Shown in pieces: positions 21,903-32,610 of a DNA stretch of 34,124 nt (the stretch's first letter is position 1; each line of letters starts with the position of its first letter). The notes under the pieces were generated by a model. It searched no databases and was not told the origin of the DNA. It worked only from the letters and a program-made list of their open reading frames with translations. This DNA comes from a virus. Lineage: Duplodnaviria; Caudoviricetes. A program made the position numbers and the translations under genes. The stretch covers positions 1 through 34,124 of IMG/VR virus record IMGVR_UViG_3300030376_000574; one strand, 5' to 3'.

Positions 21903-22031
21903 ATGCCTAAAAAAAGAAAACTAAACTCTAAGAATCCAAAGTATATGGATAAAGTAGAAGAAGTTAAAGCAACTAAAAAGCTTATAGCTGAGGTAAAAGG
22001 AGTACGAATTTACGCAGTATTTAATGAATAG
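21903..22031 (+). CDS. Small basic protein (not in ORF track)
   Basis: MPKKRKLNSKNPKY...RIYAVFNE*, 42 aa, fills the gap. Confidence 0.5.
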   Translation: MPKKRKLNSKNPKYMDKVEEVKATKKLIAEVKGVRIYAVFNE

Positions 22032-22438: not shown

Positions 22439-22639
22439 ATGAATAAATTTTTTGAAAAGTTTTTGATAGGTACAATGTTTAAAAGTAAGAAATTTTGGTA
22501 TACAATAATTGGTTGTCTTACAACGCTTTTAAGTGAGCAGTTTGGCTTAAACGAAGCAGAAGTAAACAATATACTTATGAGTATTGCAGCTTTAGTTTTA
22601 GGACAAGGTATTGCTGATACCGCAAAAGCAAAGAAATAA
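22439..22639 (+). CDS. Putative holin
   Basis: FKSKKFW followed by two hydrophobic helices and GQGIAD. Confidence 0.7.
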   Translation: MNKFFEKFLIGTMFKSKKFWYTIIGCLTTLLSEQFGLNEAEVNNILMSIAALVLGQGIADTAKAKK

Positions 22640-22670
22640 TTTGCTTTTTAAATAAATATAGTTAACTTTG
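22640..22670 (+). promoter_or_regulatory. Bacteroidota sigma-A-type promoter
   Basis: TTTG (22640-43), 19 nt, TAACTTTG (22663-70). Confidence 0.75.
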
Positions 22671-22674
22671 TAAT

Positions 22675-22756
22675 CCTTCTCTGAGTGTTTTCATAGTGGG
22701 TTTTAGTTAGCAGTAATTAAGAGTGAGAGGTTAATAACTTCTCACTCTTTCTTTTT
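22675..22756 (+). ncRNA. Candidate antisense sRNA
   Basis: Lies between a consensus promoter and an intrinsic terminator; no ATG on the + strand; complementary to the leaders at 26445-26477 and 31284-31293. Confidence 0.5.
22719..22756 (+). terminator. Intrinsic terminator
   Basis: AAGAGTGAGAGGTT-aat-AACTTCTCACTCTT then TCTTTTT. Confidence 0.8.
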
Positions 22757-22803
22757 ATAAGTTATTTTTTCCTTTATATTTACTTTAACTAAAATTATAA
22801 ATT

Positions 22804-23895
22804 ATGCTTGAAAAATTAAAAGGTAAAAGATTAAGACTTTCTGCCGAAGAAGTTGAGCTTATTAATGAGTTCAGAGGCAATAATTTAGAAAACATTAATG
22901 GAAATACTGCGCTAGACCTACACTTAAAAGAAAGAGGAATTGATAAGAATGATGTCGTTAGTGTAAAGCATTGGCAAAGTATGAGTGGAGAATTAAGATT
23001 CTCTATCGTCACAAAGGAAGATTATGGTCTAAGTGAGAACCAAATCTTTAAAAAAATAAATAGCTTCATAGAAGAATATTCTCCTGCTTATACTCCTATA
23101 AAAAGAAAAAAAGGTAATCATCTTCTTGTCATAAATCCTGCTGACATACATATAGGTAAGTATGCTAGTGAGTTAGAAACAGGAGAGAAATATGACTGTG
23201 AAACTGCTGTGATGCGTGTTTTAGAAGGCATAGAAGGTCTTATAGAAAAAGCACAAGGATTTAATATTGACAGGGTAATGTTTTGTATAGGTAATGATGT
23301 CTTACATATTGATAATGTGTATAATACAACAACCAAAGGAACACATCAAGACACAGATGGTAAGTGGTGGGAACACTACGAAATAGCATTGATGCTCTAT
23401 GTTAAGTGTATAGAAACCCTTAGGCAAATAGCTCCTGTAGATGTTATACATAGTATGAGTAATCACGATTATCAATCAGGCTTTCATTTAGCACACACTT
23501 TAAAAAGTTGGTTTAGAAAAGCTGAAGATGTAGAGTTTGATATAAGCGTAGCTAACAGAAAGTATTATGCTTATGGTGATAACCTTATTGGTTTAGAACA
23601 CGGAGACGGAGCCAAGATGGATAAGCTACCTCTTTTAATGGCGCAAGAAAGACCTGAAATGTGGAGTAAAAGTAAATATAGATATTGGTATTTACATCAC
23701 TTACATCACAAAATAAAACACAAATGGTTAGACGCTAAAGATTATATTGGTGTAACTGTTGAGTATATGAGAAGCCCTTCGTCAGCAGATAGTTGGCACT
23801 CACGCAAAGGATTTTGCGGCGCATACAAAGCCTGCGAAGCTTTTGTTCACGATAAACAAAGTGGTCAGGTAGCAAGACTAACACATTATTTTTAA
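22804..23895 (+). CDS. Calcineurin-like metallophosphoesterase
   Basis: ADIHIG, GND, SNHD, EHGD and HHLHH motifs. Confidence 0.85.
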   Translation: MLEKLKGKRLRLSAEEVELINEFRGNNLENINGNTALDLHLKERGIDKNDVVSVKHWQSMSGELRFSIVTKEDYGLSENQIFKKINSFIEEYSPAYTPIKRKKGNHLLVINPADIHIGKYASELETGEKYDCETAVMRVLEGIEGLIEKAQGFNIDRVMFCIGNDVLHIDNVYNTTTKGTHQDTDGKWWEHYEIALMLYVKCIETLRQIAPVDVIHSMSNHDYQSGFHLAHTLKSWFRKAEDVEFDISVANRKYYAYGDNLIGLEHGDGAKMDKLPLLMAQERPEMWSKSKYRYWYLHHLHHKIKHKWLDAKDYIGVTVEYMRSPSSADSWHSRKGFCGAYKACEAFVHDKQSGQVARLTHYF

Positions 23896-23985
23896 CCCTT
23901 AAGTAACCCTTTACATAGGGTATTTAATACCCTTATATATAAAGATAAAGATAAATATAAAGATAAGGATAAAGATAAATACTAG
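23893..23985. repeat. Putative replication origin: ACCCT iterons plus AAAGAT hexamer tract
   Basis: TAACCCTT at 23893 and 23904; inverted pair AGGGTATT/AATACCCT 23917-23933; about 6.5 AAAGAT-like units 23941-23980. Confidence 0.55.
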
Positions 23986-24022: not shown

Positions 24023-24053
24023 TTTGGTATTTAAAAAAAAAGCTGTATCTTTG
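24023..24053 (+). promoter_or_regulatory. Bacteroidota sigma-A-type promoter
   Basis: TTTG, 19 nt, TATCTTTG. Confidence 0.8.
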
Positions 24054-24097
24054 CTAAAAATTAACTAACTAAGTATTAACGAAAACACACATTAGCT

Positions 24098-26402: not shown

Positions 26403-26434
26403 TTTGTTATTAACGTATATTTTTCTTATATTTG
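26403..26434 (+). promoter_or_regulatory. Bacteroidota sigma-A-type promoter
   Basis: TTTG, 20 nt, TATATTTG. Confidence 0.8.
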
Positions 26435-26474
26435 TATGACTAACTAATTACTAACTAATACCCACAAAAACACT

Positions 26475-27537: not shown

Positions 27538-28182
27538 ATGGCTAAGAGATTTACAGACACAGATAAGTGGAAGAAAGGTTTTATGAGAAACCTACCCACT
27601 AAATATAAACTGCTATGGTTATATATACTAGACGATTGTAACCACGCAGGAGTATGGGAAACAGACTTTGAGGTAGCCTCAATAAGAATAGGTAGTAAGA
27701 TTAGCGAGAAAGAAGCTATAAAACATTTTGCATCTCAGATAAGAATCTTTGACGAAGGCGACAGATGGTTTGTTCCAAAGTTTATAGAGTTTCAGTATGG
27801 TGAGTTAAACGCTAACTCAAGACCTCATCAAGCAGTTATTAAGTTAATTGAGAAATATGACTTATACAACTTAAAAGGCGTAAACCTTACTGAGACATCT
27901 GAAACTGCTAAACCTGCCTTAAAACGCTTTAAAAAGCCATCTATGGAAGAATTAGAGCTATATTGTCAGGAGAGACAAAATAAGGTAGATATATTTAAGT
28001 TCTATAACTTTTATGAAAGTAATGGTTGGAAGGTTGGTAAGAATCCTATGAAAGATTGGAGAGCATCTATAAGGACGTGGGAGTCTAACACTAAAAGCAA
28101 AACCACAGAAGGTAAACTGCAGAGCCAAATAAATGCTTGGCAAGGAGCTAAAGAGATAATTAAAAAACAAATGAATAAATAA
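27538..28182 (+). CDS. Replication initiator/replisome organiser
   Basis: MAKRFTDTDKW...WLYILDDCNHAGVW wHTH-like N-terminus; FKKPS...FYNFYESNGWKVGKNPMKDWRASIRTWE C-terminal domain. Confidence 0.8.
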   Translation: MAKRFTDTDKWKKGFMRNLPTKYKLLWLYILDDCNHAGVWETDFEVASIRIGSKISEKEAIKHFASQIRIFDEGDRWFVPKFIEFQYGELNANSRPHQAVIKLIEKYDLYNLKGVNLTETSETAKPALKRFKKPSMEELELYCQERQNKVDIFKFYNFYESNGWKVGKNPMKDWRASIRTWESNTKSKTTEGKLQSQINAWQGAKEIIKKQMNK

Positions 28183-30611: not shown

Positions 30612-30622
30612 ATTTTTTATTT

Positions 30623-30659
30623 TGAAACTGCTCTGAAACTGCCAACCCCTTGAAACTGC
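30623..30659. repeat. Three TGAAACTGC direct repeats
   Basis: Copies at 30623, 30634 and 30651. Confidence 0.8.
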
Positions 30660-30712
30660 TAGGTATGCTTACTAGCCCTATATGGGTAATTTTTCCTCAA
30701 ATTTTTTTACTG

Positions 30713-30789
30713 TGCGTGCATAATATATGCGTGCATAATATATGCGTGCATAGTATTTAGAGCTGTTTTTATTATGCGTGCATAGTATT
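30713..30789. repeat. 15-bp repeat TGCGTGCATARTATW, four copies
   Basis: Tandem at 30713, 30728 and 30743; fourth copy at 30775. Confidence 0.9.
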
Positions 30790-30968
30790 TTATAAAATTT
30801 AACATAATAATAATAATTTCCATTTTAAAGCCTTTTAAAGCTATTTCATATAGCTATAATATATAGACATTAAAAGTTTTTGTTATTGCAATAGGCAAAT
30901 TTTACTAGAGAAGAATTTTTGACTTTTTTACTAATTAACAAAATATTGTTAAAAAAGTATATAAATAA

Positions 30969-31027: not shown

Positions 31028-31258
31028 ATGAAAAATTATATTTTAACTAACAAATTAACAGGGGTTAAGGAGTTAATGAATTACGCAGATTTGCAAAACA
31101 GAATAAGCAGAAATAGAAAAGATTTTTTCAAAACTTATTTTGTAGAAGTAGAAACAAAAACGCCACTAATAGAAAAACTTTTGCTAGCTCTTTTTATAGG
31201 CGTGTCATCTATTGCGCTAGGTTCTTTATTTCTTGAAGGGTTTATTTACTTTATTTGA
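31028..31258 (+). CDS. Small protein with C-terminal transmembrane helix
   Basis: LLLALFIGVSSIALGSLFL. Confidence 0.65.
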   Translation: MKNYILTNKLTGVKELMNYADLQNRISRNRKDFFKTYFVEVETKTPLIEKLLLALFIGVSSIALGSLFLEGFIYFI

Positions 31259-31283
31259 TTACTAATTAAAACACATTAAAAAA

Positions 31284-32447
31284 ATGAAAACACAGAATAT
31301 AATATTAGATTCAATTAACTATCTTAAAAACTTTGTGCCTACTCATAAAGAGTTTAACACATATAAACATATAGGGCGTGCGGTCTCTAATCCTTTGAAC
31401 GTCTCTTATATATCACAGGGTAAAATAAATGCAATAAAAGAGCATACAGGCGGCATAATAGGCAACAGACCTACAAAGGAGCAGCGCAAAAAATACTTCA
31501 CGCAAACAAGTATAAACAAACTATTAAAAAAATTGTTTGTTATTAATACAAGTGAAGAAAGCAAAAAACTAGAGACAATATCGCAAGAAGTGGACGACTT
31601 TTTAAAGTCTTCATTAGATTATGAATTTAAAATTTTTGATAATGTTCCAGAATTTTATGCTAATGAAGCCGCAAATTATAACGGCTCATGCATGGCTGGT
31701 AAACCTATTGAATATTTTGAAATTTATGATTTGATTAATCAGAGTAAAAAAGTTAACGTAAAAATGGCGGCTTTTGTTAGTGGTGACGAGATATTAGCAA
31801 GGGCGTTAATTTGGTGCGATACTACCAGAATTAACAAAGTATGCGAGGATAGCGGCGATATATTAGAGACAAACGAAACAAAAATTTATTATTTAGATAG
31901 AATATATATAAACAATAAGTTGCAAAATGTTTGTTTTTCTGAGATGCAATATAAACTTTTTAAAGCAGTTAAAAGAGCATATAAAACAGATTATTTACCT
32001 TGCTACAATAAAAGCCACATTGAAAGCTATATATTAAATAAATACCAGCACACAGACACAGAAAAATTCAAATTTATGTGTAATAGGTCAACACCAAAAT
32101 TTGTCATTTCTTTAGATTATGACGAAGTAATGAATTGTCACGCTTTCCCATATTTAGATACTTTTCGTTATATGGACGAAGATGGTTATCTAGGTTATAC
32201 AGAAGACGACGTAAGAATAATATTTGACCAAACAAACGGAGATTATACCGAGGCGGGCAAATGCTGTGATAATTGCGGCGACACTATGCACAGAGAAGAC
32301 GAAATATATTCAGACCTAGACGATGAATATTTATGTAATGACTGCGCAATATATATTGATGAAAGGGGCGAATATTGCAACGAATCTAACGCTGTTTATA
32401 ATGATTATAGCGGTCAATATCATTACGCCCACGACTTAGACCGATAA
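31284..32447 (+). CDS. Uncharacterised early phage protein (SCM...ARALIW...DRIY...FPYLDTF) with zinc-ribbon tail
   Basis: Motifs visible in the translation; CDNC...CNDC in an acidic C-terminus. Confidence 0.7.
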   Translation: MKTQNIILDSINYLKNFVPTHKEFNTYKHIGRAVSNPLNVSYISQGKINAIKEHTGGIIGNRPTKEQRKKYFTQTSINKLLKKLFVINTSEESKKLETISQEVDDFLKSSLDYEFKIFDNVPEFYANEAANYNGSCMAGKPIEYFEIYDLINQSKKVNVKMAAFVSGDEILARALIWCDTTRINKVCEDSGDILETNETKIYYLDRIYINNKLQNVCFSEMQYKLFKAVKRAYKTDYLPCYNKSHIESYILNKYQHTDTEKFKFMCNRSTPKFVISLDYDEVMNCHAFPYLDTFRYMDEDGYLGYTEDDVRIIFDQTNGDYTEAGKCCDNCGDTMHREDEIYSDLDDEYLCNDCAIYIDERGEYCNESNAVYNDYSGQYHYAHDLDR

Positions 32448-32480: not shown

Positions 32481-32567
32481 ATGAGCAAAAGCAATTTTGA
32501 CAGCATACCATTTAACGATTATACTATCTCTTTGATATTTATATTATTCTTGTTATTTGGTTGTTAA
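32481..32567 (+). CDS. 28-aa hydrophobic peptide (not in ORF track)
   Basis: MSKSNFDSIPFNDYTISLIFILFLLFGC*; has an ACTAAC leader and is followed by a hairpin. Confidence 0.45.
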   Translation: MSKSNFDSIPFNDYTISLIFILFLLFGC

Positions 32568-32574
32568 ATAATAA

Positions 32575-32610
32575 GCGGCAGGTGTTAAAAGCCTGCTGCA
32601 AATTATTTTA
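32575..32610 (+). terminator. Probable terminator hairpin
   Basis: GCGGCAGGT/GCCTGCTGC stem; weak U-tract. Confidence 0.5.

Follow-up and report, generated by a model that had tools for sequence, protein, structure and literature searches.

The segment at positions 22640 to 22756 is a real, conserved non-coding unit, and it probably encodes a trans-acting small RNA (sRNA) of the phage that would repress translation of the genes heading its early operons. We put the probability of this reading, which is drawn from sequence comparison, at roughly 0.7. The first-pass annotation had proposed an sRNA acting in trans, with antisense matches to the start regions of scattered early genes, and that proposal is now backed by covariation across related phages and by shuffle tests of the predicted pairing. 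The comparative evidence that the unit would pair with the phage's own early leaders is strong. The evidence from the genome of the window alone is modest to moderate, the window being the whole stretch of DNA that was analysed, a single phage contig of 34,124 bases.

The window comes from an uncultured phage, and all of its substantial genes lie on the + strand. The left side carries the terminase, a Clp-type protease, the portal and the tape measure, followed by a DUF5675 protein at 22024, a holin-like gene at 22439, a phosphoesterase/exonuclease-like gene at 22804 and the early block; the lysis labels in the 22024/22439 region are putative and were assigned by position and size. Promoters across the window fit the TTTG/TAnnTTTG consensus described for Bacteroidota (PMC6847099, PMC7366714), which suggests that the phage host probably belongs to this group. 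The capsid protein had no match in 50,697 phage records and no close cultivated phage was found; the phosphoesterase reached at most 48.6% identity to cultivated phages among the matches listed, and the unit itself gave short matches alone to such phages, with E values of 0.3 or worse. A match to the crAss-like cr3_1 was set aside, as it falls at an unannotated minus-strand start. None of 22 genomes of one order had a match to the capsid protein, and model R1 of the unit matched 0 of 5 Bacteroidota-labelled genomes, results from which neither a host assignment nor absence follows. The exact pattern of the unit is present in 19 metagenome contigs of up to 31.4 kb, Tara Oceans scaffolds among them.

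The promoter of the unit begins right after the stop codon that ends the holin-like gene (22439-22639). The consensus promoter, the following stretch of about 45 nt free of a + strand ATG (none occurs in 22671-22718) and the strong + strand terminator that were first described here were all recovered, with the boxes, spacer, stem and T run listed in Table 1. The fold of the unit has a z score of -3.9, and 0 of 200 shuffles folded as well. The predicted 5' end follows the spacing rule between the -7 box and the transcript start given in PMC6847099. The hairpin is the first + strand terminator-like site downstream of the lysis genes, and it probably also ends the late/lysis operon. Model R1 has a single full match in the window, indicating that the unit is single-copy.

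Table 1. Features of the unit and of its predicted targets in the window
Feature	Position	Strand	Description
Bacteroidota sigma(ABfr)-type promoter	22640-22670	+	TTTG at 22640-43, 19-nt spacer, TAACTTTG at 22663-70
Predicted sRNA, about 80-82 nt	22675-22756	+	Start inferred 4-5 nt past the -7 box
Seed B, GAGUGUUUUCAU	22683-22694	+	Complementary to AAAAC(A/G)C immediately ahead of start codons, and to AUGAAAACAC at the start of 31284
Type-specific linker and seed A, GUGGGUUUUAGUUAGCAGUAAUUAA	22695-22720	+	Complementary to ACUAAYUA boxes
Intrinsic-terminator-like hairpin and U tract	22719-22756	+	14 pairs (22719-22749), conserved top GUUAAUAAC, then T run
Main predicted target	26445-26474	+	Leader, -30 to -1, of peptidase gene 26475, head of the replication operon; promoter 26403-26434
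Second predicted target	31256-31296	+	Leader and first codons of the 387-aa gene 31284
Third, weaker predicted target	24059-24088	+	Leader of 24098, first gene past promoter 24023-24053
Probable replication initiator	27538-28182	+	Directly after the peptidase; boxes present only in relatives without the peptidase

Two boxes in the unit, GUGUUUU and UUAGUUAG, are complementary to AAAACAC and to ACUAACUA or ACUAAUUA in the leaders of genes 26475, 31284 and 24098. The matches listed earlier at 26445-65, at 26471-77, at the start of 31284 and at 24065 are all as described. An AAAACAC box that the first reading overlooked lies inside all three leaders (24082, 26467 and 31268), in addition to the match at the start of 31284; thus each target carries two boxes, in the order needed to pair with the unit. 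The first reading had spoken of two distant early genes. Both stand as predicted targets, and the number did not hold, as the target set is wider and consists of early-operon heads. The peptidase has no relative among solved structures, the product of 31284 belongs to no named family (a PcfJ lead stands at 0.77 only), and gene 27538-28182 has a Phg_2220_C lead with a score of only 0.93.

When compared with 300 dinucleotide shuffles of the unit, the predicted pairing reached -30.2 kcal/mol for 26475 and -26.2 kcal/mol for 31284, each matched by 0 of 300. With no folding counted, the best value among 51 start regions was equalled by 8 of 300 dinucleotide shuffles. Sliding windows elsewhere in the genome, mostly within genes, pair equally strongly when accessibility is ignored, because the RNA of the unit is rich in G and U. 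With folding counted, the top three of the 51 start regions were 26475 (-22.7 kcal/mol), 31284 (-18.0) and 24098 (-12.9). Of 150 shuffles, 2 then equalled the best of the 51 and none equalled the sum of the best two, which answers the earlier concern that the energies might be no better than those of shuffled controls; 24098 by itself is weak and not significant, with 10 of 150 shuffles as low. Genome-wide counts of single boxes are near expectation (9 against 9.1 expected, and 14 against 11.1 expected). The target leaders are nearly unstructured, at 0 to -2 kcal/mol, and the predicted duplexes are long, up to about 28 pairs.

When the 80 nearest relatives of the downstream gene were compared, 72 had the unit at the matching place, and a TAnnTTT(G/A) box, variable at the nn positions, stands at the correct spacing in 72 of 72 hairpin-bearing loci. 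In a wider set, 104 of 137 loci that are distinct in the neighbouring gene carry the unit, with 49 distinct 5' versions that were sorted by eye into eight types, A to H. In many loci without the unit, the holin-like gene directly adjoins the phosphoesterase gene. Among 41 variants of types A to D and H, 8 of the 14 hairpin pairs have changed on both sides, 99% of the cells are paired, and the GTGTTTT columns of seed B are invariant or almost so; types E, F and G were excluded from this alignment (A1). The first-pass annotation had also named a contrary explanation, in which the segment would be an inverted leader expressing the minus-strand minigene MKTLREGLQS. That frame exists in the window with a leader-like stretch upstream, but no minus-strand promoter of consensus form is directed at it, and a minus-strand ATG occurs in only 18 of the 49 distinct versions, with frames of 4 to 50 codons. 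The minigene is therefore not a conserved feature, and this explanation is barely credible.

Several further observations concern the unit and its surroundings. Types A, C and H share a conserved UCCUUCU-like 5' end (22675-22681 in the window) that leader pairing does not account for; it resembles an anti-Shine-Dalgarno word, and in silico it pairs with purine-rich early codons, for example in gene 25846. The hairpin top GGTTAATAAC (22730-22738) is near-invariant in types A to D and H though the stem varies, reads GTAGTT in types E, F and G, and is a possible protein-binding site. Non-coding repeats at 30622-30790, which comprise two copies of TTGAAACTGCT and four 18-nt copies with 15-nt spacing, may be an origin or an array of protein-binding sites; in types E and F, triplets of TTGAAACTGCT recur in the gap that separates the unit from the phosphoesterase gene. 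An ATAAAG-type tandem repeat occupies 23934-23975, downstream of the phosphoesterase gene and ahead of the first early promoter. After 31284, a 28-codon hydrophobic frame (32481-32567) has a partial two-box leader that pairs weakly with the unit, and a terminator-like hairpin follows at 32575-32599. The phosphoesterase gene (22804-23895 and its relatives) has been exchanged between phage groups with and without the unit. It has its own -7-like box at 22775-22782; in many type C relatives (e.g., L043 and L068) this box is only 4-5 nt upstream of the ATG, suggesting a leaderless phosphoesterase mRNA.

The main evidence for the sRNA comes from the way in which the unit and the leaders of the same phage change together. 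In type G, the unit gains a long U run and GGGU, and its own leaders read ACCCUUAAAAACUA. In type E, GUGUUUUC is replaced by CAUAGUCGU, and its own leader ends ACGAUUAUG. Type D has a seed B short by one U and a leader short by one A, and a single locus, L054, has a one-base deletion in seed A with a matching leader. When seven unit types were set against seven peptidase-leader types, using 38 of 39 loci (L118, with a mis-called start, was dropped), the same-genome assignment was the best of 5040 permutations, as expected from the earlier proposal that the sRNA and its target leaders would co-vary in related genomes. The signal holds inside type C alone (p=0.017). Two sets of leaders outside the peptidase matrix gave a cognate matching of 135 of 40320 for the first early gene, where the cognate type ranked first in 3 of 8 columns only, and of 1 of 24 for initiator leaders without a preceding peptidase. 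The slot of the 24098 type, that of the first early gene, thus co-varies with the unit in relatives. Type B pairs weakly (28 of 200 shuffles for L014 and 25 of 200 for L017, two of its three loci), and its row ranks 5 of 7. A negative control, the initiator leader behind the peptidase, also reached 237 of 5040, and a small part of the signal may therefore reflect shared composition or ancestry. The loci are related strains, so that there are about seven independent events, namely the type switches, and not hundreds.

The position of the boxes is also informative. The mean cognate energy of the initiator leader is -20.0 when the initiator heads the operon and -11.9 when it stands behind the peptidase, and where the peptidase is absent, the boxes precede the gene that occupies its slot. 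In these comparisons the boxes belong to the operon-head slot and not to a particular gene. Among the 46-61 start regions of each near-complete relative (types C, E and G), the peptidase leader came first in 8 of 8 cases, with early-operon heads making up most of the other high ranks. Where the unit is present, 66 of 673 start regions on the early side have the two boxes together and 0 of 586 on the late side do; where it is missing, the figure is 1 of 528. These counts include near-identical strains and some spurious frames. Of the first-gene leaders, 45 of 58 contain ACTAACT when the locus has the unit, as against 0 of 18 when it does not. L250 was removed from the no-unit set because its contig cut runs through the unit, and L018 was kept in the no-unit set of the leader comparison despite its contig ending before the site.

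The same boxes could instead be DNA operators for a phage protein, for example the product of the Cro/C1-type HTH gene 25535, with the unit as an inverted operator behind a host promoter. The boxes lie just 3' of several early promoters, an HTH_26 protein is encoded in the window, and the C/T and A/G degeneracy is compatible with a DNA motif. However, the end of box B is 0-9 nt upstream of the ATG in all 47 box-containing leaders among 55 of type C, and this position is tied to the ATG also in internal genes with no nearby promoter box. Furthermore, the spacing of the boxes is unequal in the unit and in the leaders, which would need bulges in the RNA, and the inverted copy is always flanked by a promoter box and a terminator-like hairpin. 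At the positions of box A opposite a G of the sRNA, 38 of 39 departures from an exact match are compatible with G-U pairing, although 34 of the 38 fall at a single position and may be one ancestral state. The ATG-tied box B and the G-U compatible departures favour predicted RNA pairing over a DNA operator, which we consider quite unlikely.

About equally unlikely is that the hairpin serves only as a late-operon terminator and that the preceding stretch, a leader copied in inverted orientation, is neutral and has stayed similar through ancestry or recombination. The place of the hairpin just past the lysis genes would agree with this, as would the reverse complement of the stretch, which looks like a leader with a start codon. 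Recombination is frequent, as seen from the neighbouring phosphoesterase gene: its tree is mosaic, with types E, F and C interleaved, and hence the order of the type switches is unreadable from it. Yet the unit and the leaders remain matched across swaps of this gene, which lies between them, and their complementarity survives about seven type switches. The -7 box also keeps its TA and TTT while the nn positions change, and the seeds are conserved while the linker varies, a pattern that speaks against a neutral copy.

A further alternative accepts that the RNA is made but has it act chiefly on host mRNAs, or as a decoy for an RbpB-like RRM protein through its UAGUU repeats. Types F and C contain three to five UAGUU words, RbpB is described as binding FopS sRNAs and AU-rich 5' regions (PMC11697453), and two Flavobacteriaceae-type genomes (L087 and L100) contain the two boxes ahead of an ATG, oriented as in a target. 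On the other hand, type G has fewer UAGUU words and still matches its own ACCCUUAAAAACUA leaders, each unit type follows the leaders of its own phage, and the two-box pattern has 35 matches in 185,579 species genomes, spread over unrelated phyla as by chance. This alternative is improbable. A possible host-side look-alike of the unit is seen at L093:245-349 in a Roseivirgaceae genome, where both antisense boxes are followed by a terminator-like hairpin; the model score is weak (E 0.73).

Units with a promoter box and a terminator, of unrelated sequence and at other genome positions, occur in neighbouring phage groups (L242:8620-8706, L228:6522-6607, L316:11624-11700 and L323:11129-11200, +). 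In 3 of 33 loci of these groups (L242, L316 and L323), such units are complementary to leaders of their own locus. The L316 seed is an exact 15-nt complement of the leader at L316:16142, the L242 seed matches leaders at 2651, 7635 and 2823, and the L323 match is weaker.

From the promoter motif, the hairpin, the complementarity and its covariation, we infer transcription, pairing in the cell and repression by the sRNA. The host housekeeping sigma factor would transcribe the unit from 22675-76 to give an RNA of about 80 nt with two exposed boxes. The two seeds would then pair with early-operon leaders over about -30 to -1, sometimes including the AUG, and the duplex would mask the A-rich, unstructured stretch needed by Bacteroidota ribosomes and block ribosome loading. 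Such a block of initiation is suggested by reports that adenines at -3, -6, -12 and -13 and low structure promote initiation in Flavobacterium (PMC6847099), and that GibS (PMC7366714) and FopS (PMC11697453) repress by covering the start region with no need of a Shine-Dalgarno sequence. Repression is more likely than activation, since the target leaders hold almost no structure for pairing to open. When the lead gene is silenced, coupled downstream genes, including the probable replication initiator, would be reduced as well. The RNA may also pair with the leaders and act primarily through mRNA stabilisation, guided cleavage or Rho-dependent termination: the long duplexes lie near the mRNA 5' ends in types A and B, and there is a precedent in the P4 CI RNA, which works through premature termination. 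This outcome is highly unlikely, as the box position is fixed relative to the start codon and the AUG itself is covered in several types.

Compared to known RNAs, the putative sRNA would act like the c4 RNA of P1/P7 and is built like GibS and FopS, and it is probably a member of neither class. First, c4, an antisense RNA of about 77 nt from the immI region, targets an mRNA of its own phage in trans. It uses two boxes, of which one covers the ribosome-binding region and the other confers specificity, and the seed and the target change together between kin phages (PMC5320573, PMC12197685). The unit is likewise phage-encoded and type-specific, with targets in its own phage and two antisense boxes, one of them over the ribosome-binding region according to the predicted pairing. 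However, c4 has three stem-loops and is released from a longer precursor by RNase P, whereas the unit has one conserved hairpin, largely unstructured seeds and a promoter box of its own where the 5' end is predicted. While c4 targets an antirepressor mRNA, the unit would target several dispersed early-operon heads (the peptidase, a 387-aa unknown protein and variable small genes). Scans of 28 proteins in PHROGs and 48 in Pfam gave no antirepressor family, and no antirepressor, repressor-immunity region or partition gene was recognised. In Rfam, no family reached its gathering score in the window, and the 17 sub-threshold matches (E<=10), treated as chance, include no C4. With no match to the C4 covariance model and a different structure and target, the unit lies outside the C4 class.

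Second, the unit resembles GibS and FopS of Bacteroides in its sigma(ABfr) promoter, single-stranded 5' seed region and Rho-independent terminator, as read from the sequence, and in predicted extended pairing over start regions without a Shine-Dalgarno sequence; GibS is likewise described as two-seeded (PMC7366714, PMC11697453). GibS and FopS are multicopy chromosomal RNAs reported to repress host metabolic genes, whereas the unit is single-copy and tracks the phage's own leaders. A FopS sequence has been noted in one phage (PMC11697453); the unit has no match in the Rfam set used, which may or may not include a FopS model. Third, P22 sar, lambda OOP and aQ, VP882 VpdS and lambda PreS steer phage development by base pairing (PMC12197685). 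As described there, sar, OOP and aQ each hit one gene, whereas the unit has several early-operon leaders as predicted targets, and VpdS and PreS are Hfq-dependent and act largely on host RNAs, unlike the unit with its predicted own-leader targets. That review credits none of the five with shutting several early operons by means of a common leader address, and neither "bacteroid" nor "flavobact" occurs in it. The literature that was searched, with subscription papers outside it, gave no description of such an RNA in Bacteroidota phages. Taken as a trans-encoded base-pairing sRNA in the general sense, the unit has its own transcription-unit layout, as judged from sequence motifs, no conserved reading frame, and imperfect complementarity to distant mRNAs that is beyond chance and kept by covariation.

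The most likely role, which we put forward tentatively, is a delayed shut-off of early functions. It is favoured because the RNA of the unit and its targets have one promoter type in common. Early proteins would be made first, the hairpin-protected RNA would build up, and late-operon transcripts ending at the hairpin of the unit would supply extra antisense late in infection. A doubtful alternative is that the sRNA provides RNA-only immunity, with kin exclusion or a carrier state, in an integrase-free phage lineage. One small RNA would then shut every early operon by way of the leader address they have in common. The seed/address types, eight or more in number, would be exclusion groups in which kin of the same type are silenced and other types are not. 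The diversification into types fits kin exclusion, and nothing else backs a quiescent state. The integrase profile PF00589 matched 0 of 29 related records, including 0 of 16 with at least 90% completeness (5 of the 29 lack the unit), in agreement with the first-pass remark that no integrase is recognisable. A lysogeny switch therefore has no support beyond analogy.

Papers that describe early-gene timing or shut-off in Bacteroidota phages without a recognisable repressor or integrase were not found. One RNA of 80 nt, co-evolving with an address that several early leaders carry, would serve as a master switch that is compact and needs no protein. If the units of L242, L316 and L323 act likewise, an RNA-immunity design would be recurrent in Bacteroidota phages. 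Furthermore, the natural seed/leader pairs are ready cognate and non-cognate combinations, and they would provide orthogonal translational repressors for a phylum without Shine-Dalgarno sequences and Hfq.
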